Counted from the stretch's first letter, positions 3,250 to 47,898 are shown. The stretch: DNA of 64,000 nucleotides from Escherichia coli (GCF_016903815.1 NZ_CP069973.1), one strand, 5' to 3'. Program-made: numbers and translations. Notes: generated from the sequence alone by a model not told the origin.

Positions 3250-3503
3250 AGCACCTCCCCGCGAGACAACCCGATATTGTGAAATTTTTCCGACTCCTGA
3301 CTGAGCAGCTCGACTATCTCCACGCGGGATAACTCCGCCTTTGTGATATGGCGAATCATGGCGTCAAGATGAGAAGAAAAGCGCGTCGCTGCGTCGGCCT
3401 GTGCTTCGGTTCTGGCCTGTTGCAGCAGTAATGCGTATTTACCGCACTGATTTTCAGAAACTGTATGCATGACTTTCTCCAGGCAAAAAGAAGCCCCGCA
3501 CAA
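3246..3503 (-). CDS. Hypothetical phage early protein (orf80 position)
   Basis: 85-aa ORF, 4-nt overlap with the next ORF. Confidence 0.4.
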
Positions 3504-12129: not shown

Positions 12130-14324
<2,195 letters not shown>

Positions 14325-14436
14325 TTAAATGTCGAGATAACGATCACAAAAACGACAATATGAAAATTGTTCGAGGAGTGAAAGGCAAAAAAACGGCCTC
14401 CCGATAGGGAAGCCGTAGCAAAGTGCGCGTTATTTT

Positions 14437-14473
14437 ATGCCGGATGCAGTGTAAACGCCTTATCCGTCATACG
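14437..14473. repeat. REP element
   Basis: ATGCCGGATGCAGTGTAAACGCCTTATCCGTCATACG matches the REP consensus family. Confidence 0.4.
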
Positions 14474-14499
14474 TGGCAGTGCTGGTCGTACAAAGCACA

Positions 14500-15552: not shown

Positions 15553-15808
15553 TACTATGCTCCCGTAAATTCCGATTGGATATCGGCTATGGATTGTCCT
15601 GGCCCGCCTTTTGCGGGCAATCATAATCCTGGTCGTTACAGGCGAGTTTTTCCATCTTTTGGATGTTTTTTCAGCGTTTTCTGTTGGCTCGATTCATCAG
15701 AAAAAATGTTACCGCGGTCAAGTTTTCACCGCAAAGGTATTTAAAAGGTATTATTAAATGGTATTGTCATCGCGTACCTTACATTACCTGTCATGAAGGA
15801 ATTAAAAG

Positions 15809-18087: not shown

Positions 18088-19049
18088 GCGGCGCTCGATT
18101 ACACACGCTGCTGCCTGAATTAACCACGCGTCAGTCGGTGATGGTCGTCGGCGCGGCGGTCATTGACGTGATCGCCGACGCTTATGCCCTCCCCTGGCGT
18201 GGGTGCGATATCGAACTGAAACAGCAGAGCGTTAACGTTGGCGGCTGCGCACTGAATATTGCCGTGGCGTTAAAGCGCCTCGGCATCGAAGCGGGTAACG
18301 CCTTGCCGCTCGGTCAGGGCGTGTGGGCGGAGATTATTCGCAACCGGATGGCAAAAGAGGGCTTAATCAGCCTGATCGATAACGCCGAAGGTGATAACGG
18401 CTGGTGTCTGGCGCTGGTTGAGCCGGATGGCGAACGCACTTTTATGTCATTCAGCGGTGTGGAAAATCAGTGGAATCGCCAGTGGCTGGCGCGATTAACC
18501 GTTGCGCCTGGCAGCCTGCTCTATTTTTCCGGTTATCAACTGGCCTCGCCCTGCGGCGAATTATTAGTGGAATGGCTGGAAAAGCTGCAAGACGTGACGC
18601 CGTTTATCGATTTTGGCCCACGTATTGGCGATATCCCGGATGCATTGCTGGCGCGGATCATGGCCTGTCGACCTTTAGTGTCACTCAATCGTCAGGAGGC
18701 TGAGATTGCCGCCGAACGTTTTGCTTTATCCGCAGAGATAACAACACTTGGCAAGCAATGGCAGGAGAAATTTGCCGCGCCGTTGATCATTCGTCTCGAT
18801 AAAGAGGGCGCATGGTATTTCAGCAACGACGCTTCTGGCTGCATTCCGGCATTTCCAACGCAAGTAGTAGACACCATTGGGGCGGGCGACAGTCATGCAG
18901 GTGGCGTACTTGCCGGGCTAGCCTCTGGTCTGCCACTGGCGGATGCCGTATTACTGGGCAATGCAGTGGCGTCGTGGGTTGTCGGGCATCGGGGCGGTGA
19001 TTGTGCGCCAACGCGCGAGGAACTACTCCTCGCACACAAAAACGTATAG
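18084..19049 (+). CDS. yegV: PfkB-family sugar/nucleoside kinase
   Basis: 321 aa with C-terminal DTIGAGDSHAGG ribokinase signature. Confidence 0.85.
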   Translation: MSGARLHTLLPELTTRQSVMVVGAAVIDVIADAYALPWRGCDIELKQQSVNVGGCALNIAVALKRLGIEAGNALPLGQGVWAEIIRNRMAKEGLISLIDNAEGDNGWCLALVEPDGERTFMSFSGVENQWNRQWLARLTVAPGSLLYFSGYQLASPCGELLVEWLEKLQDVTPFIDFGPRIGDIPDALLARIMACRPLVSLNRQEAEIAAERFALSAEITTLGKQWQEKFAAPLIIRLDKEGAWYFSNDASGCIPAFPTQVVDTIGAGDSHAGGVLAGLASGLPLADAVLLGNAVASWVVGHRGGDCAPTREELLLAHKNV

Positions 19050-31291: not shown

Positions 31292-33325
31292 ATGACTCAA
31301 GTCGCGAAGAAAATTCTGGTGACGTGCGCACTGCCGTACGCTAACGGCTCAATCCACCTCGGCCATATGCTGGAGCACATCCAGGCTGATGTCTGGGTCC
31401 GTTACCAGCGAATGCGCGGCCACGAGGTCAACTTCATCTGCGCCGACGATGCCCACGGCACACCGATCATGCTGAAAGCTCAGCAGCTCGGTATCACCCC
31501 GGAGCAGATGATTGGCGAAATGAGTCAGGAGCATCAGACTGATTTCGCAGGCTTTAACATCAGCTATGACAACTATCACTCGACGCACAGCGAAGAGAAC
31601 CGCCAGTTGTCAGAACTTATCTACTCTCGCCTGAAAGAAAACGGTTTTATTAAAAACCGCACCATCTCTCAGCTTTACGATCCGGAAAAAGGCATGTTCC
31701 TGCCGGACCGTTTTGTAAAAGGCACCTGCCCGAAATGTAAATCCCCGGATCAATACGGCGATAACTGCGAAGTCTGCGGTGCGACCTACAGCCCGACTGA
31801 ACTGATCGAGCCGAAATCGGTGGTTTCTGGCGCTACCCCGGTAATGCGTGATTCTGAACACTTCTTCTTTGATCTGCCCTCTTTCAGCGAAATGTTGCAG
31901 GCATGGACCCGCAGCGGTGCGTTGCAGGAGCAGGTGGCAAACAAAATGCAGGAGTGGTTTGAATCCGGCCTGCAACAGTGGGATATCTCCCGCGACGCCC
32001 CTTACTTCGGTTTTGAAATTCCGAACGCGCCGGGCAAATATTTCTACGTCTGGCTGGACGCACCGATTGGCTACATGGGTTCCTTCAAGAATCTGTGCGA
32101 CAAACGCGGCAACACCACCAGCTTCGATGAATACTGGAAGAAAGATTCCACCGCCGAGCTGTACCACTTCATCGGTAAAGATATCGTTTACTTCCACAGC
32201 CTGTTCTGGCCTGCCATGCTGGAAGGCAGCAACTTCCGCAAGCCGACTAACCTGTTTGTTCATGGCTATGTGACGGTGAACGGCGCGAAGATGTCCAAGT
32301 CTCGCGGCACCTTTATTAAAGCCAGTACCTGGCTGAATCATTTTGATGCTGACAGCCTGCGTTACTACTACACTGCGAAACTCTCTTCGCGCATTGATGA
32401 TATCGATCTCAACCTGGAAGATTTCGTTCAGCGTGTGAATGCCGATATCGTGAATAAAGTGGTTAACCTGGCATCCCGTAACGCTGGCTTTATCAACAAG
32501 CGTTTTGACGGCGTGCTGGCAAGCGAACTGGCTGACCCGCAGTTGTACAAAACCTTCACGGATGCCGCTGAAGTGATTGGTGAAGCGTGGGAAAGCCGCG
32601 AATTTGGTAAAGCAGTACGCGAAATTATGGCGCTGGCTGATCTGGCTAACCGCTATGTCGATGAACAGGCTCCGTGGGTGGTGGCGAAACAGGAAGGCCG
32701 CGATGCCGACCTGCAGGCAATTTGCTCGATGGGCATCAACCTGTTCCGCGTGCTGATGACTTACCTGAAGCCGGTACTGCCGAAACTGACCGAGCGTGCA
32801 GAAGCATTCCTCAATACAGAACTGACCTGGCATGGTATCCAGCAACCGCTGTTGGGCCATAAAGTGAATCCGTTCAAGGCGCTGTATAACCGCATCGATA
32901 TGAAGCAGGTTGAAGCACTGGTGGAAGCATCTAAAGAAGAAGTAAAAGCCGCTGCCGCGCCGGTAACTGGCCCGCTGGCTGACGATCCAATCCAGGAAAC
33001 TATCACCTTTGATGACTTCGCCAAAGTTGACCTGCGCGTGGCACTGATTGAAAACGCAGAGTTTGTTGAAGGTTCCGACAAACTGCTGCGCCTGACGCTG
33101 GATCTCGGCGGTGAAAAACGCAATGTCTTCTCCGGCATTCGTTCTGCTTACCCGGATCCGCAGGCACTGATTGGTCGTCACACCATTATGGTGGCTAACC
33201 TGGCACCACGTAAAATGCGCTTCGGTATCTCCGAAGGCATGGTGATGGCTGCCGGTCCTGGCGGGAAAGATATTTTCCTGCTAAGCCCGGATGCCGGTGC
33301 TAAACCGGGTCATCAGGTGAAATAA
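31292..33325 (+). CDS. metG: Methionyl-tRNA synthetase
   Basis: 677 aa from [14 protein letters not shown] (HLGH), KMSKS and zinc knuckles CPKC...CEVC. Confidence 0.95.
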
Positions 33326-33465: not shown

Positions 33466-36400
33466 ATGAGGCACTTTATCTTTCAGGACGAAAAATCACA
33501 TAAATTCTGGGCGGTGGAGCAACAGGGAAACGAGTTGCATATCTGTTGGGGAAAAGTTGGCACCAAAGGGCAAAACCAGGTAAAAAGTTTTGCGGATGCT
33601 GCGGCAGCGGCAAAAGCGGAGCTTAAGCTGATCGCAGAGAAAACGAAAAAAGGCTATGTGGAAAATGCTTTAGCAAACGTGCATATCCCCCCCATCACCA
33701 AAGCCACTCCTGAAGTTGAAACCTCCCCTGAGAGTAAAAACAAACGCCCATGGGTGGCTGATGATGCAGTCATTCCGGTAACTGGCGATATTAATCGATT
33801 TGCTTTTCCTCATCGCTCTCGCCCCAGAGAGATCAATTATCTGTACAAAGATGGCCAAATATGGAAGCGCATCGCGAATAACACCAGGGCATATGACCCC
33901 GACAATAATTACCGCTCTTATCCTGAAAACTGGCAGCTGGCGTTTGCCGAGTTACAAAGGCGAATTCTGAATAATCAACAAACAGGAAGTATACAATCTG
34001 ATGCGGCATTGCTCTGGAATTTATGGAACTCTTACTCTACAGATGAACTGGTCGATGACTTAGTCATTCGCTGTGGTCTGGAAACTACCGTTGAAATCGC
34101 CCTTCTCGCTCTTCAACTCAAATATAAACCAGTAAAAGCCGACGTCACCACCATTATTCCCCCTGATCTCAAAGCAGAATCACTACCGAACTGGCATCAA
34201 CGTCTATGTCATCATCTTTCACTCGCTTCAGAAGATGAGTGGCAACGCTGTGTAGATAAAGTTCTCGCTGCTATTCCCTCGCTATCCCCAGCACGGCAAC
34301 CTTTTGCGGCGTTACTGCTCCCTGAACGCCCGGATATTGCCAATGCTATGGCGCTACGTTATGCAGATCAAAACGTTCCGGCGATGACCTGGTTAAGACT
34401 GGTGGTAACCGATGACGCCGCTCTGACTACAGCAGAAAAATACGACTTCCCACCGTTGTATCATGATTTTCGCGCTTATCTGGCAATGTTGCTGGCAAAT
34501 AATGGGGTGCGCGGTGTAAGCCGGATACTTCTTGAGTTTACGGAAGAGCATTCTGACAATCCCACTTATCTCTTCGAGCGCATCAGCGAGACTGAAGATC
34601 TTGTCAAATGGCTATGGAAAACGAATCACCCGGATGCGATTCAAATTCTGATCCTCGGTGTAATTGGCAAGAAAAAGCACCTGGAATACTTAAGCAAAGC
34701 CTGTCAAAAACATCCCGCTGCGGCTCTTGCCGCTTATGCAACTTTACTGGCAATACATGAAGATGCACAGTGGCGTAAAGCGCTTGTCAAACTGATTACC
34801 GCCACGCCAGATTTAGTCACTGACGTCATTCCCTGGGTTAATGCTAAAGCGGCAGGCATCTTATCTGAATGTCGTACTCAGTTAGTCGCTGAAGAATGTG
34901 AATACGCCACTGCGGATATGTTGCCGGAGCTGTTTGTCGCTCCACCGTGGGTAATAAATAAGAAAACGAATGTAATACCCGTATTTGATTTACCGGTGCT
35001 TCCCATCCCTGCAGTCACTGACATCACGCCAGGAATTACAGAGTTAATCAGTCATACTGACATATCCAGATTCAGTGAAATCGCGCAATATCAGTCATCA
35101 CAGCAAACCTTATTTACCGACCTGCCACTAATTGAAAAAGAAAGCTGGGAGACATCTTTCATTCCTTTTACACCAGAACAACAAATCCTTTGGCAATTAG
35201 GTTTTAATGAATGGCTGCATTGCGAAGATGACTTACATGAAAAAAAATATATACCGCAAAGCGCTGTTGATGCCTTGTTGCGCTTTGATTTTCCAGCACT
35301 AAAAGCTGAGTTTGCGAAATATCACAACAATGCCAACAAAAGCTGGAATCTATCTGCGCTTTGTTACTTACCGGGACAACAGGCGATTTCATTTCTCAAC
35401 CAAATAATCATTGAGGAGCGATATTCAGGTGAGAAAGAGATTCTGGCAGTTTTTGGTAGTACGGCCATTCCTGCGTTTATGACCTGCTTGCAACGAGATC
35501 ATCAACGACTGTGGATATTCACCCTCTTTATTGGGGCCAGTGAACTAGCCTTACCAATGGCGCAGCGGTTACAGAAAAAAATGGCTTACAAGGATGCCAT
35601 TAATTGGCTGGCAAATAACCCGCGCCATGCCGCCGCCGGGCTACTGCCTTTGGCGCTGGGCAAACCGTGCCAAAATCGGGAATATGCCCGCCAGGCATTC
35701 CGCCTGCTAGTGAAATTAAACCAGCGAGAAACGATTGAAGAAATCGGCCGGAGATACAACCAACCTGATGTTTTAGCTGCGCTGGCAACATTGTTCGATA
35801 GCGATCCGCTGGAAGAATATCCCGCTAAAATCGCCCCACTGCCCGGCTTTTATCAGTTCACCTTATGGCGCAGACCACGGCTTAAAAGTAACAACCTGCC
35901 TCTGCCAGATGACGCTATGCGCCACCTGGGCACAATGTTGAGCTTTCCACGCGACATTACCTCCTACGCTGGGCTGGCGACCATCAAAGAGACCTTCACC
36001 CACGAATCACTGGCTGACTTTGGCTGGGATCTCTACACGGCATGGACAGAAGCTGGCGCACCCGCAAAAGAAAACTGGGCATTTACTTCGCTTGGGATTT
36101 TAGGCAATGACGACACCGCACGTAAATTAACCCCGCTTATCCGTGCCTGGCCGGGTGAATCCCAGCATAAACGCGCGGTTTACGGGCTGGATGTATTAGC
36201 TGATATTGGCAGCGATGTTGCGCTAATGCTGCTTAATGGCATCGCGCGAAAAATTAAATTCAAAGCATTACAGGAACATGCCCGCGAGAAAATCAACATA
36301 GTTGCTGAAAACCGTGGGCTGACTATGGCTGAACTGGAAGACCGCCTGGCTCCAGATTTAGGGCTTGATAACAGTGGCTCGCTGATACTGGATTTCGGCC

Positions 36401-37263
36401 CACGTCAATTCACCGTTGGTTTTGACGAAACCTTAAAACCTGTAGTGCACGATGCAAACGGCAAAGTCCTGAAAGATTTACCCAAACCAAATCAGAGCGA
36501 TGATCAAACACTGGCAACTGACTCCGTTAACCTCTTCAAACAATTGAAGAAAGATGTGCACGCCATTGCCAGCCAGCAGATTGATCGTCTGGAGCAGGAT
36601 ATGTGCCAGCGCAGACGCTGGACGGCAGAGCAGTTCCGCCTGTTTCTGGTGGAGCATCCGCTGGTACGTCACTTAACCCGACGGGTGTTATGGGGGGTAT
36701 ATACTGAGGAAAACACGCTGATCGCCTGCTTCCGGGTCGCAGAAGACAGCACTTACAGCGATGCGCAGGATGAGTTATTCACGCTGCCAGCAGGAAACAT
36801 CGGTATACCGCATGTGCTGGAAATATCTCCTGAATCCGCCACTGCATTTGGGCAAATTTATGCTGATTACGAAAAGCTTCCTCCCTTTCGCCAACTCGAT
36901 CGTGGTTATTACCACCTTACTGATAATGAACGTGATACCCATGAATTGATACGCTGGCAAGGACGTCTTTGCCAGGCCGGGCGCATTGTCGGGCTGGAAC
37001 GTCGAGGCTGGCAACGTCTGGAAGAAAGCGGCAGCGTCTATGCGATGCGCAAATCTACCCCTTATGGCGCTCTCGAACTTGAAACAGAACATTTTTCATT
37101 AATTTATGGCGAAACGGGGTATAGCGACCTGCTACCTGTTGAAAGCGTAAAAATCACTTCACCAGGGGAACGCTACAGTACACAGCCCTCGCTCACGTTC
37201 TCCGCGCTTGATGCCATCACCGCCAGCGAACTCATTAACGACATCGAATCACTTTTTGATTAA
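33466..37263 (+). CDS. molR: MolR-family giant protein, intact (1265 aa), N-terminal WGR-like module
   Basis: N-terminus HKFWAVEQQGNELHICWGKVGTKGQ resembles the WGR fold; long helical body; first gene after the metG terminator. Confidence 0.8.
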   Translation: MRHFIFQDEKSHKFWAVEQQGNELHICWGKVGTKGQNQVKSFADAAAAAKAELKLIAEKTKKGYVENALANVHIPPITKATPEVETSPESKNKRPWVADDAVIPVTGDINRFAFPHRSRPREINYLYKDGQIWKRIANNTRAYDPDNNYRSYPENWQLAFAELQRRILNNQQTGSIQSDAALLWNLWNSYSTDELVDDLVIRCGLETTVEIALLALQLKYKPVKADVTTIIPPDLKAESLPNWHQRLCHHLSLASEDEWQRCVDKVLAAIPSLSPARQPFAALLLPERPDIANAMALRYADQNVPAMTWLRLVVTDDAALTTAEKYDFPPLYHDFRAYLAMLLANNGVRGVSRILLEFTEEHSDNPTYLFERISETEDLVKWLWKTNHPDAIQILILGVIGKKKHLEYLSKACQKHPAAALAAYATLLAIHEDAQWRKALVKLITATPDLVTDVIPWVNAKAAGILSECRTQLVAEECEYATADMLPELFVAPPWVINKKTNVIPVFDLPVLPIPAVTDITPGITELISHTDISRFSEIAQYQSSQQTLFTDLPLIEKESWETSFIPFTPEQQILWQLGFNEWLHCEDDLHEKKYIPQSAVDALLRFDFPALKAEFAKYHNNANKSWNLSALCYLPGQQAISFLNQIIIEERYSGEKEILAVFGSTAIPAFMTCLQRDHQRLWIFTLFIGASELALPMAQRLQKKMAYKDAINWLANNPRHAAAGLLPLALGKPCQNREYARQAFRLLVKLNQRETIEEIGRRYNQPDVLAALATLFDSDPLEEYPAKIAPLPGFYQFTLWRRPRLKSNNLPLPDDAMRHLGTMLSFPRDITSYAGLATIKETFTHESLADFGWDLYTAWTEAGAPAKENWAFTSLGILGNDDTARKLTPLIRAWPGESQHKRAVYGLDVLADIGSDVALMLLNGIARKIKFKALQEHAREKINIVAENRGLTMAELEDRLAPDLGLDNSGSLILDFGPRQFTVGFDETLKPVVHDANGKVLKDLPKPNQSDDQTLATDSVNLFKQLKKDVHAIASQQIDRLEQDMCQRRRWTAEQFRLFLVEHPLVRHLTRRVLWGVYTEENTLIACFRVAEDSTYSDAQDELFTLPAGNIGIPHVLEISPESATAFGQIYADYEKLPPFRQLDRGYYHLTDNERDTHELIRWQGRLCQAGRIVGLERRGWQRLEESGSVYAMRKSTPYGALELETEHFSLIYGETGYSDLLPVESVKITSPGERYSTQPSLTFSALDAITASELINDIESLFD

Positions 37264-37275
37264 AAGGACTTTGCA

Positions 37276-40200
37276 ATGAAAACCTATATTTATCAGGACG
37301 AAAAATCACATAAATTCTGGGCGGTGGAGCAGCAGGGAAACGAACTGAATATCAGTTGGGGCAAAGTCGGCACCAACGGGCAAAGTCAGGTAAAAAGCTT
37401 TGCAGATGCTGCGGCGGCGGAAAAAGCGGAACTCAAGCTGATTGCGGAGAAAACGAAAAAGGGGTATGTGGAACATGCGGAGAATGCTACATCGAAACAT
37501 ACTCGAACGGTAACGAAATCTCTCGAATTATCTGACTTTTCTACCATCATTCAGGAACAGCCCTCAGTTACACCAGAATTCTACGTGGCTGACAAAAATA
37601 CAGACGTTATTTTACCGTGGCTGGCAAAAGATATTGCTGTCGTTTTTCCGCTTGAAGTCGTACCCACCACCTTAAGCCATCGCCGCTTTCCCGGAGATCC
37701 TGTTACACCTGTAGATAAATTAACCCAGTTACGTCGCTTAGCCTGTGGCGTGTCGCAACGGGATAACAAAACAGCTACATTTGACTTCAGCGCCTGTACT
37801 TTAGAGTGGCAAAACTTCATCGCTCAGGCGATCGATCTGATTAACAGCCCGAAAACGACAAAATTACCATCACCGGTAATGGCTGTACTCGCGGCACTTG
37901 AACTGCACTGCACGAGATATAAAGAGCGTGCGGATGTTATGGATCAGATTATTCAGGAAGGCGGTCTGGAATATGCTACTGATGTAATAATACATCTTCA
38001 ACAAATATCTATTGAATGGGATTATGTCAACAATAATATTGTTTTCCTGTCGTCTGGCATTTCACCTGATTATTTGCAGCAATATTCCAGCTTTGAATTA
38101 CGCCTACGTAAACATTTATCACTGGCGGAAGAGTCTCTCTGGCAAAAATGTGCACAAAAACTTATTGCCGCAGTTCCACATATTCCAGAATGGCGGCAAC
38201 CATTAATTGCTTTGTTATTGCCCGAAAAACCAGAAATTGCACATGAAATTGCCCAGCGTCTACTGGGGCAAAAGAAATTACCCTCGCTGGAGTGGCTAAA
38301 AATAGTGGCGACTGATGAGCACATTCTTGCCTCATTAGAAAAATATCACGAGCCATATGCCATTTTTGATGATTACTATTGTGGTGCGATATGGTCAGCC
38401 ACCGTATTACAGGAGCAAGGTGTTGCGGCCCTGCCCCGATTTGCTCCCTATGTCGCAAGTGACTACTGCGCCGATGTGTTGCGTCATATCAATCATCCGT
38501 TCGCATTAACACTGCTTATACGTGTAGCAGGGCATACTAAACGCTGTCACGATCGAATGACGAAAGCCTGCGCTGCGTTCCCACACGCAGCACTGGCAGC
38601 ACTGGCGGAACTTCTAGTGCAAAAAGAAGAGAATAGTTGGCGCATTATGCTAATGACGATGCTTATCTCGCAACCGACACTAGCAGAACAGGTCATTCCC
38701 TGGCTTTCGACACCCGCAGTTGCAGTGCTGAAATCATGCCAGCAACAACTGACACAGCCCTCAAACCATGCCAGCGCCGATCTACTGCCGGCCATAGTAG
38801 TCTCCCCACCATGGCTTTCGAAAAAGAAAAAATCGCCGATTCCAGTGCTTGATTTAGCACCATTAGGTATTGAGCCAATCAGTTATCTGACAGAAGAAAT
38901 CAGTAATCAACTTTTGGCGAAATATATCTGGTATTCAAAACACATCACGGTTAGTCATGAAGAAAGTACTGCCAATCTGTTGGCAAGGATGGGTTTTCAA
39001 CGACGGATCGCTGGTACATATATTAAAGCTCCCGAAGCGGTAGTTGAGGCATGGCTAAATGAAGATTATTCAACTTTAATAAGTGAATTTAAGGTGTTTC
39101 ATTCACCTACCGGGCATTATTGGCATTTGGGGATTTTGACAACATTGCCGCTGGAGAAAGCAGTAAGAGCATGGAATGCCCTTACTCTATCTCCGCATAC
39201 CGATACCGAATACGCCATGTTACATTTTGGACTCAAAGGATTACCTGGGTTAGTAAACTCACTTGCACGCTATCCACAGGAAGCCTTGCCCATAACGAAT
39301 TACTTCGCAGCGAGTGAGCTGGCACCTGCCGTCGCCCGCGCCTTCAACAAACTCAAAACCCTACGACAAGACGCCCGCACCTGGCTGCTGAAATACCCGG
39401 AACACGCCATTACCGGCCTGCTGTCTGCGGCGCTCGGCAAAGCCGGTGAAGCACAGGATAACGCCCGCGCTGCATTGCGTATGCTTACCGAAAACGGTCA
39501 TCAACCATTACTGCAAGAAATCGCCCGGCGTTATAACCAGCCGGAAGTAACAGATGCGGTGAACGCTATGCTTGCGCTCGATCCCTTAGATAATCACCCG
39601 ACAAAAATCCCCACTCTTCCGGCCTTTTATCAGCCATCGATCTGGACCCGCCCGGTATTAAAAGCAAATGCCCAATCACTGCCCGATAGCGCACTCCAGC
39701 ACCTCGGTGAAATGCTCCGCTTCCATCAGGAGGAGGCGCTGTATCCGGGATTATTGCAGGTGAAAGATGCCTGTACCGCCGACTCACTGGCTGAATTTGC
39801 CTGGGATCTGTTTACCGCCTGGCAGACCGCTGGCGCGCCGTCGAAAGAGAGTTGGGCGTTCACTGCGTTAGGCGTTCTCGGTAACGATGACACCGCCCGC
39901 AAACTGACGCCATTAATACGCGCCTGGCCTGGTGAATCCCAGCATAAACGCGCCACCGTCGGGCTGGATATCCTCGCCGCTATCAGTAGTGATATCGCCC
40001 TGATGCAGCTTAACGGCATTGCCCAGAAACTGAAATTCAAAGCATTACAGGAGCGGGCGAAAGAGAAAATTGCCGACATTGCCGAAAGTCGCGAACTGAC
40101 GGTAGCGGAGCTTGAAGATCGGTTAGCACCGGCTCTCGGTCTGGATGATAACGGTTCGCTGCTGCTGGATTTTGGCCCACGGCAGTTCACCGTCAGCTTT

Positions 40201-41070
40201 GATGAAACCTTAAAACCGTTTGTGCGCGATGTTTCCGGCAGCCGCCTGAAAGACTTACCTAAACCCAATAAAAGCGATGATGAATCACAGGCAAACGATG
40301 CTGTTAACCGCTACAAATTGCTGAAAAAAGATGCGCGTACCGTCGCCGCCCAGCAGGTAGCAAGGCTGGAATCCGCCATGTGCCTGCGCCGCCGCTGGTC
40401 GCCGGAAAACTTTCAGCTCTTCCTGGTTGAGCATCCGCTGGTTCGTCACTTAACCCGCCGTCTGATTTGGGGCGTTTATAGCGCCGAAAACCAGCTACAG
40501 GCGTGCTTTAGGGTGGCGGAAGATAACAGCTACAGCACCGCTGACGATGATCTTTTCACCTTGCAGGAAGGCGATATCTCTGTTGGCATTCCTCACGTTC
40601 TGGAAATATCACCGACGGATGCTGTCGCCTTTGGTCAGCTTTTTGCCGACTACGAACTGCTACCACCGTTCCGTCAGCTTGAACGTAACAGTTACGCCCT
40701 GACAGAAGCCGAGCGCAACGCCAGCGAACTGACCCGCTGGGCAGGCAGAAAATGCCCGAGCGGCCGGGTCATGGGGCTGGCAAATAAAGGCTGGATAAAG
40801 GGCGAACCACAGGATGGAGGCTGGATCGGATGGATGATCAAACCTCTCGGTCGCTGGTCGTTAATCATGGAAATCGACGAAGGTTTTGCGGTGGGTATGT
40901 CACCAGCCGATCTTAGCGCTGAGCAGGTCTTAAGCAAGCTGTGGCTATGGGAAGGCAAAGCGGAAAGCTATGGCTGGGGGAGTAATTCAACTCAGGAAGC
41001 GCAGTTCTCCGTGCTCGACGACATCACCGCCAGCGAACTCATTAACGATATTGAAGCCCTGTTTGAATAA
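37276..41070 (+). CDS. yehI: MolR paralog (1264 aa), N-terminal WGR-like module
   Basis: Collinear homology to molR along its length; near-identical N- and C-terminal ends; 12-nt gap after molR stop with AAGGA RBS. Confidence 0.8.
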   Translation: MKTYIYQDEKSHKFWAVEQQGNELNISWGKVGTNGQSQVKSFADAAAAEKAELKLIAEKTKKGYVEHAENATSKHTRTVTKSLELSDFSTIIQEQPSVTPEFYVADKNTDVILPWLAKDIAVVFPLEVVPTTLSHRRFPGDPVTPVDKLTQLRRLACGVSQRDNKTATFDFSACTLEWQNFIAQAIDLINSPKTTKLPSPVMAVLAALELHCTRYKERADVMDQIIQEGGLEYATDVIIHLQQISIEWDYVNNNIVFLSSGISPDYLQQYSSFELRLRKHLSLAEESLWQKCAQKLIAAVPHIPEWRQPLIALLLPEKPEIAHEIAQRLLGQKKLPSLEWLKIVATDEHILASLEKYHEPYAIFDDYYCGAIWSATVLQEQGVAALPRFAPYVASDYCADVLRHINHPFALTLLIRVAGHTKRCHDRMTKACAAFPHAALAALAELLVQKEENSWRIMLMTMLISQPTLAEQVIPWLSTPAVAVLKSCQQQLTQPSNHASADLLPAIVVSPPWLSKKKKSPIPVLDLAPLGIEPISYLTEEISNQLLAKYIWYSKHITVSHEESTANLLARMGFQRRIAGTYIKAPEAVVEAWLNEDYSTLISEFKVFHSPTGHYWHLGILTTLPLEKAVRAWNALTLSPHTDTEYAMLHFGLKGLPGLVNSLARYPQEALPITNYFAASELAPAVARAFNKLKTLRQDARTWLLKYPEHAITGLLSAALGKAGEAQDNARAALRMLTENGHQPLLQEIARRYNQPEVTDAVNAMLALDPLDNHPTKIPTLPAFYQPSIWTRPVLKANAQSLPDSALQHLGEMLRFHQEEALYPGLLQVKDACTADSLAEFAWDLFTAWQTAGAPSKESWAFTALGVLGNDDTARKLTPLIRAWPGESQHKRATVGLDILAAISSDIALMQLNGIAQKLKFKALQERAKEKIADIAESRELTVAELEDRLAPALGLDDNGSLLLDFGPRQFTVSFDETLKPFVRDVSGSRLKDLPKPNKSDDESQANDAVNRYKLLKKDARTVAAQQVARLESAMCLRRRWSPENFQLFLVEHPLVRHLTRRLIWGVYSAENQLQACFRVAEDNSYSTADDDLFTLQEGDISVGIPHVLEISPTDAVAFGQLFADYELLPPFRQLERNSYALTEAERNASELTRWAGRKCPSGRVMGLANKGWIKGEPQDGGWIGWMIKPLGRWSLIMEIDEGFAVGMSPADLSAEQVLSKLWLWEGKAESYGWGSNSTQEAQFSVLDDITASELINDIEALFE

Positions 41071-41079
41071 GGAAAGAGC

Positions 41080-43278
41080 ATGGACAAGGAATTACCGTGG
41101 CTGGCGGATAACGCCCAAGTGGAACTGAAATATAAAAAAGGCAAAACGCCGCTCAGCCATCGCAGTTGGCCGGGCGAACCGGTGCCTGTTATCACTGAAA
41201 GCCTCATCCAGACACTGGGTGATGAATTGCTACAAAAAGCTGAGAAGAAAAAAAACATTGTCTGGCGTTATGAAAATTTTTCACTGGAGTGGCAGTCGGC
41301 CATTACGCAGGCCATCAACTTGATTGGCGAACACAAACCCTCAGTTCCGGCCCGGACAATGGCGGCGCTAGCCTGTATCGCGCAAAATGATAGCCAACAG
41401 TTGCTCGACGAAATCGTCCAACAAGAGGGACTGGAATATGCGACTGAGGTGGTGATTGCACGCCAGTTTATTACACGATGTTATGAAAGTGATCCTCTGC
41501 TAGTGACATTGCAGTATCAGAACGAGGATTATGGCTATGGTTATCGATCAGAAACCTATAACGAATTCGATCTCCGACTGCGTAAGCATCTCTCTCTGGC
41601 AGAGGAAAGCAGCTGGCAGCGTTGCGCCGACAAACTCATTGCCGCACTGCCAGGAATAACCAAAGTTCGCCGCCCTTTTATTGCTCTGATCCTCCCGGAA
41701 AAACCAGAAATCGCCAATGAGTTGGTAAGCCTTGAATGCCCGTGGACTCATTTTCATTCTAAGGAGTGGTTAAAAGTTGTTGCTATTGACCCCAGAGCGG
41801 TGAGAAAACTCGAACGCTACTGGAGCCAGGATATATTTAGCGATCGGGAAGCCAGCTACATGTCGCATGAAAACCACTTCGGCTACGCGGCCTGCGCTGC
41901 CCTTTTGCGCGAACAAGGACTGGCAGCCGTTCCACGCCTGGCAATGTATGCCCATAAAGAAGATTGCGGCAGTCTGCTGGTACAAATTAACCATCCGCAG
42001 GTCATCCGCACCCTGCTGTTAGTTGCTGATAAAAACAAACCCAGCCTGCAACGTGTAGCTAAATACAGTAAAAATTTCCCCCATGCGACGCTTGCCGCAC
42101 TGGCAGAACTGCTGGCGCTAAAAGAACCACCTACGCGCCCTGGTTATCCAATCATCGAAGACAAAAAGCTGCCTGCACAGCAAAAAGCACGTGATGAATA
42201 CTGGCGTACGCTGTTACAAACGCTGATGGCATCGCAGCCACAACTGGCAGAAGAGGTGATGCCGTGGTTAAGTACTCAAGCCCGGTCAGTGCTGAATAGT
42301 TATTTATCGGCACCGCCTAAAACGGTTATTGATAGCACCGATAACAGCCAAATGCCTGAAATCCTCGTTTCACCACCGTGGCGTAGTAAGAAAAAAATGA
42401 CAGTTCCACGTCTTGATTTGGCACCGTTCGAATTAACGCCGCAAGTTTACTGGCAACCAGGCGAACGAGAGAGGCTTGCCGCCACTGAGTCTGCCCGTTA
42501 TTTCAGCACGGAATCTCTTGCGGAACGCATGGAACATAAAAGTGGACGAGTTGTACTACAGGAGCTGGGTTTTGGAGATGATGTATGGCTGTTTCTGAAT
42601 TATATACTCCCCGGAAAACTGGATGCTGCACGCAATTCACTCATTGTTCAGTGGCATTACTACCAGGGGCGGGTTGAAGAGATCCTGAATGGCTGGAACT
42701 CCCCGGAAGCACAATTAGCAGAACAGGCGCTTCGCAGCGGTCACGTAGAAGTGTTAATTAACATATGGGAAAATGACAGCTACTCACGCTATCGTCGGGA
42801 AAAGAGTATCTGGAACCTGTATTTATTGGCACAGTTGCCGCGTGAGATGGCTTTGACTTTCTGGCTACGTATCAATGAGAAAAAGCATCTGTTCGCGGGT
42901 GAGGACTATTTTCTCAGTATCTTCGGATTGGATGCTCTACCAGGTCTGCTGTTGGCTTTTTCACATCGTCCAAAAGAAACATTTCCGTTAATTTTAAATT
43001 TTGGCGCAACAGAACTGGCCCTGCCCGTTGCCCGCGTCTGGCGACGTTTCGCGGCGCAGCGTGATCTGGCTCGCCAGTGGATTTTACAATGGCCGGAACA
43101 TACGGCTACTGCACTTATCCCTCTTGTCTTCACCAAATCCAGCGATAATAGCGAAGCTGCATTACTTGCCCTACGTTTACTTTACGAACAGGGACATGGT
43201 GAATTGCTGCAAACCGCGGCAAACCGCTGGCAGCGTACAGATGTATGGCCTGCCCCGGTCTGGCAAAACTGGTGCTGA
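41080..43278 (+). CDS. Third MolR/YehI-family paralog (732 aa), no WGR module, ends at TGA
   Basis: Aligns to YehI residues ~100-800 (LPWLA, LRLRKHLSLAEES, PEKPEIA, VSPPW.SKKK blocks); starts 10 nt after yehI stop with AAGGAAAGA RBS; no P-loop. Confidence 0.6.
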   Translation: MDKELPWLADNAQVELKYKKGKTPLSHRSWPGEPVPVITESLIQTLGDELLQKAEKKKNIVWRYENFSLEWQSAITQAINLIGEHKPSVPARTMAALACIAQNDSQQLLDEIVQQEGLEYATEVVIARQFITRCYESDPLLVTLQYQNEDYGYGYRSETYNEFDLRLRKHLSLAEESSWQRCADKLIAALPGITKVRRPFIALILPEKPEIANELVSLECPWTHFHSKEWLKVVAIDPRAVRKLERYWSQDIFSDREASYMSHENHFGYAACAALLREQGLAAVPRLAMYAHKEDCGSLLVQINHPQVIRTLLLVADKNKPSLQRVAKYSKNFPHATLAALAELLALKEPPTRPGYPIIEDKKLPAQQKARDEYWRTLLQTLMASQPQLAEEVMPWLSTQARSVLNSYLSAPPKTVIDSTDNSQMPEILVSPPWRSKKKMTVPRLDLAPFELTPQVYWQPGERERLAATESARYFSTESLAERMEHKSGRVVLQELGFGDDVWLFLNYILPGKLDAARNSLIVQWHYYQGRVEEILNGWNSPEAQLAEQALRSGHVEVLINIWENDSYSRYRREKSIWNLYLLAQLPREMALTFWLRINEKKHLFAGEDYFLSIFGLDALPGLLLAFSHRPKETFPLILNFGATELALPVARVWRRFAAQRDLARQWILQWPEHTATALIPLVFTKSSDNSEAALLALRLLYEQGHGELLQTAANRWQRTDVWPAPVWQNWC

Positions 43279-43332
43279 CAGTGGGGCTTACAGCAGGCGG
43301 GAGAACAACTGCTAAAAACGGTTCTCACCCGT

Positions 43333-44772
43333 TTGCGCCAGCACCACTTGCCTGCTTCGACCGCGGATATGGCTGCCGCTCATCTGCATGCGATGGCGCT
43401 GGCACAGTTGCGCGGACATAAACTACCGTTACGCACTGACTGGCTGGATGCCATAGCAGGCTCGCTGATTAAAGAAGCCCTGAACGCGCCGTTGCCGTGG
43501 AGCTATCGCGGCGTTATTCATCCCGACACCGATCCGATTCTGCTAACGTTGATAGACACATTAGCGGGTGACGGATTCGGTAAACTTGCCCCTTCTACGC
43601 CACAACCGCCTCTGCCAAAAGATGTCACCTGCGAACTGGAACGTACCGCAATCTCTCTTCCGGCGGAGCTTACCTTAAATCGCTTTAACCCCAATGGACT
43701 AGCGCAAAGTCAGGTGTTACATCGGCTGGCAATACTGGAGATCCCAGGGATTGTACGCCAGCAGGGAAGCACACTGACACTTGCAGGCAACGGTGAAGAA
43801 CAGTGGAAATTAACCCGCCCGCTTAGCCAGCATGCGGCATTGATTGAGGCCGCCTGCTTTGGTGCCACACTCCAGGAAGCCGCACGCCATAAATTAGAAG
43901 CCGATATGCTGGACGCGGGTGGAATCGGCAGTATCACCACATGTCTTAGCCAGGCGGCGTTAGCGGGTCTGGCGTCCTTCAGTCAACAATTATTGGAGCA
44001 ACTCACATTATTAATCGCCCAGGAAAATCAATTTGCCGAAATGGGCCAGGCGCTGGAAGTGCTATATGCCTTATGGCGGCTGGATGAAATTAGCGGTATG
44101 CAAGGCGCGCAGATATTACAAACGACGTTATGCGCGGCTATCGATCGCACGCTGTGGCTGTGTGAATCTAACGGCAGACCAGATGAAAAGGAGTTTCACG
44201 CTCACCTGCATAGCTGGCAGGCGCTTTGCCATATCCTGCGCGATCTACATAGCGGCGTTAATTTACCCGGCGTTTCTCTTTCTGCGGCGGTAGCCTTACT
44301 GGACCGCCGCAGTCAAGCGATTCATGCCCCGGCGCTGGATCGCGGCGCGGCTCTTGGCGCACTGATGCGTCTGGAACATCCCAACGCCAGTGCCGAAGCG
44401 GCGCTGACAATGCTGGCGCAGTTATCCCCGGCACAATCCGGCGAAGCGCTGCACGGTTTGCTGGCGCTGGCCCGCCATCAACTGGCCTGTCAGCCGGCAT
44501 TTATCGCCGGTTTCAGTAGTCATTTAAATCAACTGAGTGACGACGATTTTATTAACGCCCTGCCCGATTTACGCGCGGCGATGGCCTGGCTACCACCACG
44601 AGAACGCGGGACGCTGGCGCATCAGGTGCTTGAGCATTATCAACTGGCGCAACTTCCCGTTTCGGCACTGCAAATGCCGTTGCATTGTCCACCACAAGCC
44701 ATTGCACATCATCAACAACTCGAACAGCAGGCACTGGCATCGCTGCAACACTGGGGAGTTTTCCATGTCTGA
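43333..44772 (+). CDS. Ala/Leu-rich protein, start uncertain (TTG 43333 or ATG 43369); same frame as upstream paralog
   Basis: 479-aa ORF unrelated to the MolR C-terminal domain; overlaps yehP start by 8 nt. May correspond to the C-terminal part of K-12 yehM (recollection, unverified). Confidence 0.5.
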   Translation: MRQHHLPASTADMAAAHLHAMALAQLRGHKLPLRTDWLDAIAGSLIKEALNAPLPWSYRGVIHPDTDPILLTLIDTLAGDGFGKLAPSTPQPPLPKDVTCELERTAISLPAELTLNRFNPNGLAQSQVLHRLAILEIPGIVRQQGSTLTLAGNGEEQWKLTRPLSQHAALIEAACFGATLQEAARHKLEADMLDAGGIGSITTCLSQAALAGLASFSQQLLEQLTLLIAQENQFAEMGQALEVLYALWRLDEISGMQGAQILQTTLCAAIDRTLWLCESNGRPDEKEFHAHLHSWQALCHILRDLHSGVNLPGVSLSAAVALLDRRSQAIHAPALDRGAALGALMRLEHPNASAEAALTMLAQLSPAQSGEALHGLLALARHQLACQPAFIAGFSSHLNQLSDDDFINALPDLRAAMAWLPPRERGTLAHQVLEHYQLAQLPVSALQMPLHCPPQAIAHHQQLEQQALASLQHWGVFHV

Positions 44773-45901
44773 ACTGAACGATCTTCTGACCACCCGTGAG
44801 CTACAACGCTGGCGATTAATTCTTGGCGAAGCGGCAGAAACGACGCTTTGTGGGCTGGATGACAACGCCCGGCAGATAGACCACGCGCTGGAGTGGCTGT
44901 ATGGGCGCGATCCTGAACGGCTCCAGCGTGGTGAACGCTCCGGTGGATTAGGTTGCTCAAATCTCACCACCCCTGAGTGGATCAACAGTATTCACACGCT
45001 GTTTCCGCAACAGGTGATTGAACGGCTGGAAAGCGATGCCGTACTGCGCTACGGCATTGAAGATGTGGTGACGAATCTCGACGTGCTGGAACGTATGCAG
45101 CCTTCTGAAAGCCTGCTACGCGCCGTTTTGCACACCAAACATCTGATGAATCCCGAAGTACTGGCTGCCGCCCGCCGGATAGTACGCCAGGTTGTTGAAG
45201 AAATTATGGCGCGACTGGCAAAGGAAGTTCGTCAGGCTTTTTCTGGTGTCCGCGATCGCCGTCGCCGCTCATTTATTCCACTGGCGCGAAACTTTGATTT
45301 CAAAAGTACGCTGCGCGCCAACCTGCAACACTGGCACCCGCAACACGGCAAGTTGTATATCGAATCCCCCCGCTTTAACAGCCGCATTAAACGCCAAAGC
45401 GAACAATGGCAACTGGTCTTACTGGTTGATCAAAGCGGATCAATGGTGGACTCGGTGATCCACTCAGCGGTGATGGCGGCCTGTTTATGGCAGTTACCCG
45501 GTATTCGTACCCATCTGGTGGCGTTTGACACCAGCGTGGTTGATCTCACGGCAGATGTTGCCGATCCGGTAGAGTTATTAATGAAAGTGCAATTAGGCGG
45601 CGGAACCAATATCGCCAGTGCCATGGAATATGGTCGGCAACTTATTGAACAACCAGTGAAAAGCGTCATTATCCTCGTGAGCGATTTTTACGAAGGGGGT
45701 TCATCATCATTACTGACGCATCAGGTGAAAAAGTGTGTCCAGAGCGGCATCAAAGTGCTGGGACTGGCGGCGCTCGATAGCACCGCAACACCTTGCTATG
45801 ACCACGATACGGCCCAGGCGCTGGTTAATGTCGGCGCACAAATAGCCGCCATGACACCGGGCGAGCTGGCATCATGGCTTGCGGAGAATCTTCAGTCATG
45901 A
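44765..45901 (+). CDS. yehP: von Willebrand factor A domain protein
   Basis: 378 aa from MSELNDLL; MIDAS-like DQSGSM...GGTN...SDF. Confidence 0.8.
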   Translation: MSELNDLLTTRELQRWRLILGEAAETTLCGLDDNARQIDHALEWLYGRDPERLQRGERSGGLGCSNLTTPEWINSIHTLFPQQVIERLESDAVLRYGIEDVVTNLDVLERMQPSESLLRAVLHTKHLMNPEVLAAARRIVRQVVEEIMARLAKEVRQAFSGVRDRRRRSFIPLARNFDFKSTLRANLQHWHPQHGKLYIESPRFNSRIKRQSEQWQLVLLVDQSGSMVDSVIHSAVMAACLWQLPGIRTHLVAFDTSVVDLTADVADPVELLMKVQLGGGTNIASAMEYGRQLIEQPVKSVIILVSDFYEGGSSSLLTHQVKKCVQSGIKVLGLAALDSTATPCYDHDTAQALVNVGAQIAAMTPGELASWLAENLQS

Positions 45902-47898
45902 ATTCACTACGTCCGGAATTATTAGAACTGACACCACAAGCTTTGACGGCGTTAAGCAATGCCGGTTTTGTTAAGCGCAGCCTTAAAGAACTGGAAAATG
46001 GCAACGTCCCGGAAATCAGCCATGAGAACGGCGCTTTAATCGCCACCTTCAGTGACGGTGTCCGCACCCAGCTGGCGAACGGTCAGGCACTGAAAGAGGC
46101 TCAGTGCAGCTGCGGGGCCAGCGGCATGTGCCGCCATCGCGTGATGCTGGTTTTAAGTTATCAGCGACTTTGCGCCACCACCCAGCCTACGGAAAAAGAA
46201 GAAGAGTGGGATCCGGCAATCTGGCTGGAAGAACTGGCTACCCTGCCCGATGCCACCCGCAAACGCGCGCAGGCACTGGTCGCTAAAGGTATCACCATTG
46301 AGTTGTTCTGTACGCCGGGCGAAATTCCCTCTGCCCGCTTACCGATGAGCGATGTACGTTTTTATTCCCGCAGCAGCATTCGTTTCGCACGCTGTGATTG
46401 TATTGAAGGAACACTTTGCGAACATGTCGTACTGGCAGTACAGGCCTTTGTCCAGGCCAAAGCGCAGCAAGCGGAATTTACTCATTTAATCTGGCAGATG
46501 CGCAGCGAACACGTCACATCATCTGACGATCCGTTTGCCAACGATGAGGGCGACGCGTGTCGTCAATATGTTCAGCAATTAAGCCAGGCGTTATGGCTTG
46601 GCGGCATCAGCCAGCCGCTTATTCATTACGAGGCTGCTTTCAGCCGCGCGCAGCAAGCGGCGGAACGCTGCAACTGGCGATGGGTGAGTGAATCGCTACG
46701 GCAACTGCGCGCCAGCGTTGATGCCTTCCACGCCCGCGCCAGCCACTATCATGCCGGAGAATGCTTACGTCAGCTTGCGGCATTAAACAGTCGATTAAAT
46801 TGCGCACAAGAGATGGCGCGGCGCGACAGTGTTGGTGAAGTTCCTCCGATGCCGTGGCGCACGGTCGTTGGCGCTGGCATTGCCGGAGAAGCAAAGCTTG
46901 ATCATCTGCGGCTGGTGTCTTTAGGTATGCGTTGCTGGCAGGATATTGAGCAGTATGGTTTACGCATCTGGTTCACCGATCCCGACACCGGCAGTATTTT
47001 GCACCTTTCGCGCAGTTGGCCGCGAAGTGAACAGGAAAACTCACCGGCAGCGACGCGTCGGCTATTTAGTTTTCAGGCTGGCGCACTGGCAGGTGGGCAA
47101 ATTGTTTCACAAGCAGCAAAACGCAGTGCCGATGGCGAGCTGTTGTTAGCTACCCGCAACCGCTTGAGTAGTGTTGTGCCGCTGTCGCCAGACGCCTGGC
47201 AAATGTTGAGCGCGCCATTGCGCCAGCCGGGCATTGTGGCTTTGCGGGAATATTTACGCCAGCGTCCCCCCGCCTGCATACGGCCTCTTAATCAGGTGGA
47301 TAACTTATTTATTCTGCCAGTCGCTGAGTGTATTTCACTCGGTTGGGATAGCAGCCGCCAGACGCTGGATGCGGAGGTAATCAGCGGCGAAGGTGAAGAT
47401 AACGTGCTGACATTATCCCTACCAGCCTCTGCCTGTTCGCCCTTTGCTGTTGAACGCATGGCAGCTCTGTTACAACAAACAGAGGACCCCGTGAGTATGG
47501 TTTCTGGCTTTGTCAGTTTTGTAGAGGGGCAATTGACACTGGAACCACAGGTAATGATGACAAAGACTCGTGCCTGGGCTCTGGACGCAGAAACTACGCC
47601 TGTGGCACCGCTACCTTCTGCCAGCGTTTTGCCTGTGCCGTCTACCGCTCATCAGTTGCTGATGCGCTGCCAGGCGTTACTTATTCAACTGCTCCATAAC
47701 GGCTGGCGCTATCAGGAACAGAGTGCTATTGGTCAGGCAGAGTTGCTGGCGAATGACCTCACCGCGGTGGGTTTTTATCGGCTGGCACATGTGTTGGCAC
47801 AATTTCGTAATACAGAAAGCGAGGCACGGGTAGAAGCAATGAATAACGGTGTTTTGCTTTGCGAACAATTATTCCCCATGCTTCAGCAACAAGGATGA
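45898..47898 (+). CDS. yehQ: SWIM zinc-finger protein, two SWIM motifs
   Basis: ATGA overlap with yehP; CSCGASGMCRHRV and CDCIEGTLCEHVV are both CxCx(n)CxH. Confidence 0.8.
   Translation: MNSLRPELLELTPQALTALSNAGFVKRSLKELENGNVPEISHENGALIATFSDGVRTQLANGQALKEAQCSCGASGMCRHRVMLVLSYQRLCATTQPTEKEEEWDPAIWLEELATLPDATRKRAQALVAKGITIELFCTPGEIPSARLPMSDVRFYSRSSIRFARCDCIEGTLCEHVVLAVQAFVQAKAQQAEFTHLIWQMRSEHVTSSDDPFANDEGDACRQYVQQLSQALWLGGISQPLIHYEAAFSRAQQAAERCNWRWVSESLRQLRASVDAFHARASHYHAGECLRQLAALNSRLNCAQEMARRDSVGEVPPMPWRTVVGAGIAGEAKLDHLRLVSLGMRCWQDIEQYGLRIWFTDPDTGSILHLSRSWPRSEQENSPAATRRLFSFQAGALAGGQIVSQAAKRSADGELLLATRNRLSSVVPLSPDAWQMLSAPLRQPGIVALREYLRQRPPACIRPLNQVDNLFILPVAECISLGWDSSRQTLDAEVISGEGEDNVLTLSLPASACSPFAVERMAALLQQTEDPVSMVSGFVSFVEGQLTLEPQVMMTKTRAWALDAETTPVAPLPSASVLPVPSTAHQLLMRCQALLIQLLHNGWRYQEQSAIGQAELLANDLTAVGFYRLAHVLAQFRNTESEARVEAMNNGVLLCEQLFPMLQQQG

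Follow-up and report, generated by a model that had tools for sequence, protein, structure and literature searches.

Probable exchange at the gene ends and allelic cassettes in tandem WGR/DUF4132 paralogs at the yeh locus of Escherichia coli

In enterobacteria the duplicated tufA and tufB genes are known to evolve in concert through gene conversion. HsdS, of the type I restriction-modification systems, consists of conserved, partner-contacting segments that alternate with two divergent regions reshuffled by recombination, and MoxR AAA+ ATPases form chaperone pairs with von Willebrand factor A (vWA) proteins (RavA-ViaA, CbbQ-CbbO, NorQ-NorD and CoxD-CoxE). The yeh locus of Escherichia coli, analysed here in a stretch of 64,000 nucleotides (nt) of NZ_CP069973.1 (the window, numbered from its first letter), shares features with all three. 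It contains three tandem paralogs, referred to as A (open reading frame (ORF) 33466-37263), B (ORF 37276-41070) and C (ORF 41080-43278). As in tufA/tufB, recombination between the paralogs A and B appears to have lowered synonymous divergence and produced shared polymorphisms; unlike in tufA/tufB, the exchange is seemingly limited to terminal tracts of about 200 nt and about 66 nt in 3.8-kb genes that are otherwise saturated, and it seems episodic, the copies not being kept identical. As in HsdS, two highly divergent regions of B, reshuffled among alleles, lie between conserved segments, whereas there is no sequence or fold relationship to HsdS, the variable regions of the yeh proteins being HEAT-like repeats with an only putative role in specificity. 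Like the MoxR/vWA pairs, the yeh operon encodes a MoxR-type ATPase (YehL) and a CoxE-type vWA protein (YehP) in conserved synteny; unlike them it adds a DUF5682 protein, a SWIM protein and one to eight WGR/DUF4132 proteins, and the characterised MoxR-vWA systems are without the allelic hypervariability seen in the DUF4132 genes. Compared with PARP1/2/3, which also carry a WGR domain, the yeh-family proteins are without the PARP catalytic domain, and some members, YehI included, are without WGR altogether. Domain-limited conversion and unequal crossover in a tandem family, as well as modular allelic mosaicism, are already known kinds of phenomena; the present A/B instance does not appear to have been described so far.

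The explanation that fits the A/B pair best combines a mosaic of protein constraint, exchange between the paralogs at the gene ends, a deletion that gave rise to a hybrid gene, and allelic cassettes in B; taken as a whole it is considered to be probably correct. The segments of A and B on which the comparison is based are as follows.

33466..37263, plus strand: paralog A, intact, with WGR, HEAT-like region and DUF4132, 1265 amino acids (aa) (Pfam; RefSeq DUF4132 protein)
33466..33663, plus strand: WGR-coding 5' segment of A, gene nt 1-198, holding the 39-nt run 33483-33521
33700..35900, plus strand: variable HEAT-like region of A; against B, synonymous sites are saturated and nonsynonymous divergence (dN) is about 0.7
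35985..36905, plus strand: conserved C-terminal region of A, gene nt 2520-3440, Pfam DUF4132, holding the 23-nt run 36154-36176
37198..37263, plus strand: 3' tail of A, the last 66 nt, encoding LDxITASELINDIExLF and holding the 27-nt run 37215-37241
37276..41070, plus strand: paralog B, intact ortholog of the K-12 molR pseudogene (yehF + yehH) as judged by identity, 1264 aa (Pfam WGR, DUF4132)
37276..37473, plus strand: WGR-coding 5' segment of B, partner of 33466-33663
37516..38595, plus strand: allelic cassette 1 of B, HEAT-like helices, gene nt about 241-1320, aa about 80-440 (from alleles and structure)
38596..38835, plus strand: conserved island of B between the cassettes, gene nt about 1321-1560, region of the 'PPW' motif
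38836..39315, plus strand: allelic cassette 2 of B, gene nt about 1561-2040, aa about 520-680
39316..41070, plus strand: conserved C-terminal half of B with helical repeats, DUF4132 and tail, holding the runs 39931-39953 and 41022-41048

In Pfam searches A matched WGR with E=5.6e-18 and DUF4132 with E=3e-48, and B likewise carries an N-terminal WGR and a C-terminal DUF4132. The WGR assignment (PF05406) is based on a match above the gathering score together with a WGR fold; the DUF4132 matches (PF13569) reached 164.5 and 175.1 bits at a cut-off of 27 and covered profile positions 1-179 of 179.

Overall, A and B are 47% identical at the aa level and 56% at the nt level, and their divergence is strongly uneven (chi-square 222, 24 degrees of freedom, p = 6e-34, 50-codon windows), so that the uniform divergence which would have spoken against a mosaic was rejected once computed. 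The first 198 nt (about 66 codons, WGR) are 86% identical in nt and 82% in aa, and the last 66 nt (about 22 codons) are conserved at 85% nt identity. The aa identity is 16-50% over alignment columns 75-875, 60-86% over columns 900-1175 and 26-42% in the stretch preceding the tail; the largest conserved block corresponds to nt 2500-3450 (approximately) with about 70% nt identity. The picture of near-identical ends around a diverged core, given in a preliminary description of this DNA, is thus right as to the non-uniformity, but the ends are less similar than was stated and the largest conserved block lies in the 3' third. Identity at synonymous codons is 76% in the 5' segment vs 49% overall.

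Regarding the identical runs, a 38-nt string occurs at 33484-33521 and 37294-37331 and grows to 39 nt when started from 33483/37293; the 5' run of about 40 nt reported earlier therefore exists, with its second copy at 37294 and not, by a slip of 10 nt, at 37304. The internal block and the run near the 3' ends were found as reported: a 23-nt string at 36154 and 39931, inside the family-wide motif WPGESxH, and a 27-nt string at 37215 and 41022. None of these strings was matched by chance in the window (0 in 100 shuffles each), and the three longest A/B runs (39, 27 and 23 nt) compare with maxima of 32, 23 and 18 nt in 2000 codon-column shuffles of the alignment. Conservation of a ribosome-binding site was considered as a cause of the 3' run and was rejected, the Shine-Dalgarno sequences of B and yehI being located in the spacers beyond the stop codons.

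Much of this unevenness is found throughout the protein family. A scan with one genome per species yielded 63 family loci, in Escherichia, Erwinia, Massilia, Duganella, Chitinibacter, Cupriavidus, Myxococcota, Mycobacterium, Nocardia, Glycomyces and others. The common architecture (about 1250 aa) comprises WGR, a disordered linker, HEAT-like helices, a conserved C-terminal half (helical repeats and DUF4132) and a short tail; the structure model shows a PARP-like WGR and a HEAT-like solenoid with predicted local distance difference test scores (pLDDT) of 86 and 94. When 78 full-length members from outside Escherichia were mapped on A, the frequency of the majority residue was 0.4-0.5 in WGR, 0.1-0.45 in the indel-rich aa 80-680 and 0.52-0.79 in aa 680-1200 with a peak near WPGESxH, followed by a dip at aa 1201-1240 and a value of 0.55 in the tail. 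The tail motif of A is found again in Massilia, Trichlorobacter and Mycolicibacterium, and the form LDxIxASELIRDxExL is retained in Actinobacteria and Desulfuromonadales. Since the family profile has the same shape as the A/B comparison, the mosaic at the protein level needs no special process in E. coli: purifying selection can safely be taken to keep the WGR domain, the C-terminal half and the tail, with the HEAT-like aa 80-680 (approximately) and the short pre-tail stretch free to vary. The similarity of A and B in the DUF region reflects ancient divergence under purifying selection and involves no conversion.

A second layer, at the DNA level, is seen at the gene ends. It was studied in 20 WGR-bearing Escherichia genes from 13 genomes, with exchange tracts judged from sliding windows and site tables, and with fixed and shared sites counted between 7 A and 8 B genes of three-copy genomes. 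Synonymous divergence (dS) between A and B, determined in four genomes, was 0.45-0.94 in the WGR segment, 0.40-1.02 in the tail and 1.6-2.6 in the DUF region, and was saturated in the variable region. The DUF region contained 165 fixed differences and 41 shared polymorphisms, compared with 1 fixed and 17 shared in WGR nt 18-172 (Fisher p = 2e-10 vs DUF) and 1 fixed and 6 shared in the last 66 nt (Fisher p = 5e-4 vs DUF); the result holds when the allele with the clearest signs of conversion and the non-coli genomes are left out. In neighbor-joining trees the A|B split received 36% bootstrap support with WGR nt 18-172 and 40% with the tail, as against 100% with a 200-nt DUF segment. In the DUF region A and B form clean clades with 88-100% identity within and 69-72% between them, whereas in WGR the ranges overlap (82-98% within, 81-94% between); in the variable region the A alleles are 78-97% identical to each other. 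The WGR segment of the A gene of strain TC10 groups with B-bodied genes, this A allele carrying B-type states. Lowered dS in the tract, an excess of shared polymorphisms with few fixed differences, and incongruence between the trees of the tract and of the rest, as expected from gene conversion, are thus all observed. Paralog exchange at the 5' end is strongly supported and can be regarded as shown, and exchange at the 3' end is probable, with moderate support; the conversion at the termini that had been proposed earlier is in this way borne out, less firmly for the 3' end. Homologous recombination would accordingly have swapped the WGR-coding segment of about 200 nt and the last 66 nt or so between A and B in Escherichia, so that at these ends both genes draw on one common pool of polymorphism. 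Concerted evolution as a general trait of the family was considered and rejected: in Massilia, Rhodanobacteraceae and other arrays the proportion of synonymous differences (pS) in WGR is not below that of the conserved region.

The variable middle shows a different kind of mosaicism, among alleles of B. The variable region of B was matched in 5377 of 5426 complete E. coli genomes, with an identity to the window of at least 99% in 322 genomes, 95-99% in 138, 90-95% in 3560, 80-90% in 214 and 60-80% in 1145. In 120-nt windows the identity of the B alleles to the window changes sharply, from 98-100% to 44-61% or back; the alleles of strains LR62 and DE17, for example, are 98-100% identical up to nt 1560 and 44-61% identical thereafter. 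Cassette 1 occurs within E. coli in allele classes of 97, 86, 57 and 43% aa identity, and cassette 2 in classes of 96, 46-49 and 36-39%; the two are found in different combinations among strains, cassette 2 having been swapped independently of cassette 1. The island between them retains 88-94% identity where the flanks of the allele are only about 50% identical, its family conservation at the matching aa 481-520 of A is 0.55, and residues P511, P512 and W513 of B show little or no variation in the alignment. On this allelic evidence the variable region of B is best described as made up of two or more cassettes that have been swapped independently and are flanked by conserved islands. A short class of B alleles (about 1010 aa) is without cassette 2; it was seen in Escherichia sp. 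E1V33 (locus L006, 13814-16846, intact) and in O157:H7 (locus L071, 7197-10181, frameshifted). Exchange of cassettes between paralogs was rejected as a source of the diversity: the cassette alleles of B share 43-59% aa identity among themselves, as against 38-40% with yehI and 27% with A, which indicates old B alleles and not imports from paralogs.

The surroundings are diverse as well. Between the window and eight other strains, EC15 included, the dS of the neighbouring metG (31292-33325) is 0.10-0.19; as metG is already diverse, the whole region is unusually diverse, and the alleles of its conserved parts are to be called ancient only with caution. The diversity of the cassettes goes far beyond this metG-level diversity. 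Some recombined segment probably has one of its limits between metG and A, given that metG shows this divergence even from EC15, the yeh genes of which are 99.4% identical to those of the window.

The rival explanation that survives best concerns this middle region. The preliminary description had suggested diversifying selection there, and positive selection could indeed drive the divergence of HEAT-like segments if, as in host-parasite recognition, they formed recognition surfaces. In line with this, the ratio dN/dS (omega) between A and B is 0.15-0.45 in the variable region vs 0.02-0.21 in the DUF region, within a single species the alleles of one gene, shuffled in the form of cassettes, diverge to aa identities of about 40%, tandem multiplication of the genes is seen throughout the family, and pseudogenes are frequent. 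However, in the segment and window scan of A and B no segment and no convincing 40-codon window had dN above dS, the low conservation of the middle is family-wide, weak constraint together with old alleles and recombination yields the same picture, and the dS of metG shows that the whole region is unusually diverse. Positive selection on the middle is not demonstrated, and it is considered a rather doubtful, though not negligible, explanation of its divergence; the earlier suggestion is not upheld by the dN/dS values.

The gene names at the locus require a correction before copy number is considered. B is 92.2% identical in nt to K-12 molR (yehF + yehH; K-12 2196474-2200269) over the full 3796 nt and lies directly upstream of yehI, with a spacer of 9 nt in both the window and K-12. 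A aligned with K-12 molR only over the first 197 nt or so (91%), a 917-nt DUF stretch (71%) and the last 67 nt, and in the variable region its nt identity to K-12 yehF/yehH is 47-48%. The match of B to yehI is weak (737 bits vs 2891 for the self match), and B has a WGR domain, which K-12 yehI (b2118, 1210 aa) has not. C is 99.9% identical to the first 2176 nt of yehI of strain EC15. By these identities B, and not A, is taken as the ortholog of K-12 molR, the truncated ORF C is yehI, and K-12 is without the body of A. The names given earlier (molR for 33466-37263 and yehI for 37276-41070) were shifted by one gene. Compared with the K-12 locus, which occupies the same position from metG to yehL (molR being the pseudogene yehF + yehH, b2115/b4499), the window has A as an extra intact first paralog, its B is intact where that of K-12 is broken, and its yehI is truncated where that of K-12 is intact.

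The body of A is present in 1643 of the 5426 genomes (about 30%) and missing from about 70%. In all five two-copy genomes examined, K-12 included, an A::B hybrid gene was found, with A-type codons 2-6 and an A-derived WGR segment on a B body, the 140-nt spacer of A after metG and the 9-nt spacer of B before yehI. In the tree the WGR segments of the hybrids sit among the A alleles in two groups, EC15_A-like and TC10_A-like. If the WGR segments of A and B underwent unequal crossover, 3.8 kb would be lost and an A-type start would remain on a B body, and it appears to be such a crossover that removed the body of A; on the most parsimonious reading this happened at least twice, or once with subsequent allelic recombination. 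K-12 molR is, judged by its A-type 5' end of about 170 nt, an A::B hybrid that later decayed. The preliminary description regarded the direct repeats as substrates for recombination; the repeats do recombine, although the product is the two-copy hybrid and not the truncated third paralog. (Note that a 2.8-kb contig in a Collinsella metagenome-assembled genome (L007) encodes a protein 96% identical to paralog A of E. coli, most likely through contamination of the bin with E. coli.) Further routes of decay were seen in strains EC6868 and O157 AR-0430, in which A is split by insertions of IS5 and IS1203.

Three-copy loci with A, B and yehI in the same order also occur in E. whittamii, Escherichia sp. 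E1V33 and MOD1-EC7003, and three copies are therefore the probable ancestral condition. The opposite polarity, with a two-copy ancestor and A inserted between metG and molR by horizontal transfer through WGR homology in a minority of strains, is considered unlikely. It would agree with the absence of A from 70% of E. coli genomes, with the single, most B-like gene of Erwinia and with the location in a highly recombining region (metG dS 0.1-0.19), but it has to contend with the shared gene order of E. whittamii and the two other non-coli Escherichia and with single-copy genes that bear A-type 5' ends of at least two A haplotypes, as deletions in three-copy ancestors predict.

Less likely still, and already disfavoured, is the explanation that purifying selection on WGR and tail has kept the ends of A and B alike without any exchange of DNA. 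Both end segments are conserved at the protein level throughout the family, omega in WGR is about 0.1, and in the Massilia arrays WGR matches the C-terminal half in conservation and shows no deficit of synonymous differences. Protein constraint does not, however, reduce dS three- to fivefold, and omega is about 0.1 in the DUF region too, so the constraint is similar in both segments even though shared polymorphisms outnumber fixed differences in WGR and not in the DUF region. Selection alone also leaves unexplained the B-type states in the TC10 A allele and the A-derived WGR segments on B bodies. Nor is a generic constraint on 5' ends a sufficient cause of the Escherichia signal, since in Massilia and other arrays pS is about 0.5 in WGR vs about 0.45 in the conserved region.

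Exchange at the ends together with deletion is accordingly preferred, and several observations weigh against it. The dS of WGR is not small, and A/B pairs from one genome are no closer than pairs from different genomes, which indicates that conversion was episodic or old and was spread by allelic recombination, and that homogenisation is not ongoing. The full 198 nt still recover the A|B split with 97% bootstrap support, owing to fixed differences retained within the first 17 nt and to variation in nt 173-198 that is confined to the B clade. In the tail, where synonymous sites number only about 15 in all, conversion is based on 7 informative sites; the comparison extends to 20 genes from 13 genomes, examined with sliding windows and site tables, and the direction of the change, deletion as opposed to insertion, depends on three outgroup genomes.

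The remaining features of the locus, downstream of B, are the following.

41080..43278, plus strand: yehI (C), third paralog, without WGR, truncated to 732 aa vs 1210 (RefSeq: pseudogene missing C-terminus)
43243..43255, plus strand: junction of the 4.26-kb yehI/yehM deletion, microhomology GTATG(G)CCTGCCC
43333..44772, plus strand: remnant of yehM (DUF5682) without the N-terminus (Pfam DUF5682 profile positions 276-695; RefSeq pseudogene)
44765..47898, plus strand: yehP (CoxE-type vWA) and yehQ (SWIM zinc finger), intact 3' end of the operon

The gene order in the window is thus metG, A, B, C, yehM remnant, yehP and yehQ, and the sequence of the region matches that of E. coli strain 7/2 at 100% identity. 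At the junction, yehI (at about nt 2176) continues, out of frame, into yehM (at about nt 752) across an imperfect microhomology of 12-13 bp, and the 3' end of yehI, yehK, the zorO region, yehL and the 5' end of yehM are lost; the junction was detected in 94 of the 5426 genomes. The truncated third paralog is therefore yehI, cut by a microhomology deletion into yehM. That it arose by recombination between the 3.8-kb direct repeats, as first suggested, has practically no probability left: A and B repeats do recombine, but ORF C is collinear with yehI (99.9%) up to nt 2176 and then continues in non-homologous yehM, no A or B sequence is present at the junction, and the nearly identical EC15 locus has a full-length yehI.

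The missing interval corresponds to positions 14255-18506 of the EC15 locus (L002) and includes the yehI-yehL spacer. In most E. coli this spacer contains the type I toxin-antitoxin genes z3289/z3290 and small RNAs (PMC2887945), so the lineage of the window has lost the z3289/z3290 locus along with yehK and yehL. In EC15 (locus 99.4% identical; L002 16668-20035) yehI is full-length, yehL is frameshifted and yehM has an internal stop, which implies that the ATPase and DUF5682 genes were already broken in the lineage before the deletion. In the window the machinery is likewise broken, with yehL deleted and both yehM and yehI truncated; A and B are still intact ORFs in this lineage despite the broken yehL and yehM. 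The variable 5' halves of A and B (33600-35400 and 37200-38400) have a G+C content of 0.42-0.48, compared with 0.54-0.57 in the conserved 3' part of B and in yehM/P/Q (39600-40800 and 43200-47400). The low values in the variable halves fit the H-NS targeting reported for the K-12 locus, where yehL and yehM are de-repressed in hns/stpA mutants (PMC3686432).

In about 35 fetched loci from several phyla, one to eight DUF4132 genes are followed by yehL, yehM, yehP and yehQ. YehL is annotated in K-12 as a MoxR ATPase, YehM belongs to DUF5682, YehP has a vWA domain (Pfam VWA_CoxE, E=2e-71) and YehQ is a SWIM protein; a MoxR ATPase gene is thus syntenic with a vWA gene in these loci, yehL being deleted in the window. 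Often the first copy of an array has a WGR domain and the later copies, like yehI, are without it. Tandem arrays of at least 7-8 copies were observed in Massilia (L012, L017, L022, L028, L029, L031 and L033) and one of 5 copies in Glycomyces (L063), and arrays also occur in Duganella (L011/L024); the large arrays mix WGR-bearing and WGR-less copies, some of them fragmented. Pseudogenes are common, as in K-12 molR, A and B of O157:H7, yehL and yehM of EC15, and the deletion in the window itself. A largely unbroken locus is seen in strain 1439, which has intact A, B, yehI, yehL, yehM, yehP and yehQ and a frameshift in yehK alone.

As for a possible role, the C-terminal half and the tail may dock each paralog onto a common YehL/M/P/Q machinery, and the variable HEAT surface may give each paralog or allele a different binding specificity. 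The WGR/HEAT/DUF4132 genes would then encode interchangeable, hypervariable specificity subunits (sensors or adaptors) of a five-part machine with YehL/M/P/Q, putatively a conflict or immunity system, whose recognition would be diversified by the cassette-swapping HEAT surface and by tandem multiplication to between 1 and 8 copies. This proposal of a five-part machine is tentative and less likely than not. Against it may be counted that PADLOC-DB 2.0 gave no match for A, B or YehI/K/L/M/P/Q at E <= 0.01 and that a full-text literature search turned up no work on how yeh/DUF4132 genes function or evolved, yielding only a type I toxin-antitoxin pair from the yehI-yehL spacer (PMC2887945) and the control of yehL/M by H-NS (PMC3686432). 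In NCBIfam the yeh proteins give only sub-threshold matches at the WGR and AAA levels. An alternative is a housekeeping role in the handling of metal cofactors, to which the CoxE-type vWA domain and the molybdate phenotype historically described for molR would point; hypervariability and frequent gene decay fit such a role poorly.

For E. coli, these results mean that the 'molR' of K-12 is the decayed hybrid of two paralogs, that many strains hold an intact extra paralog, and that gene names at the yeh locus should not be transferred by position. For tandem paralogs that are otherwise saturated, short conserved domain-coding ends may serve both as conversion tracts and as sites of deletion crossover; crossover in the WGR ends would account for the copy-number polymorphism, in which about 30% of genomes carry the body of A and the five two-copy loci a hybrid in its place. 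The cassettes, the tandem arrays, the link to MoxR, vWA and SWIM proteins, the silencing by H-NS in K-12 (PMC3686432) and the frequent decay together make the yeh locus a candidate variable-recognition system, the putative function of which can now be tested with natural panels of alleles.

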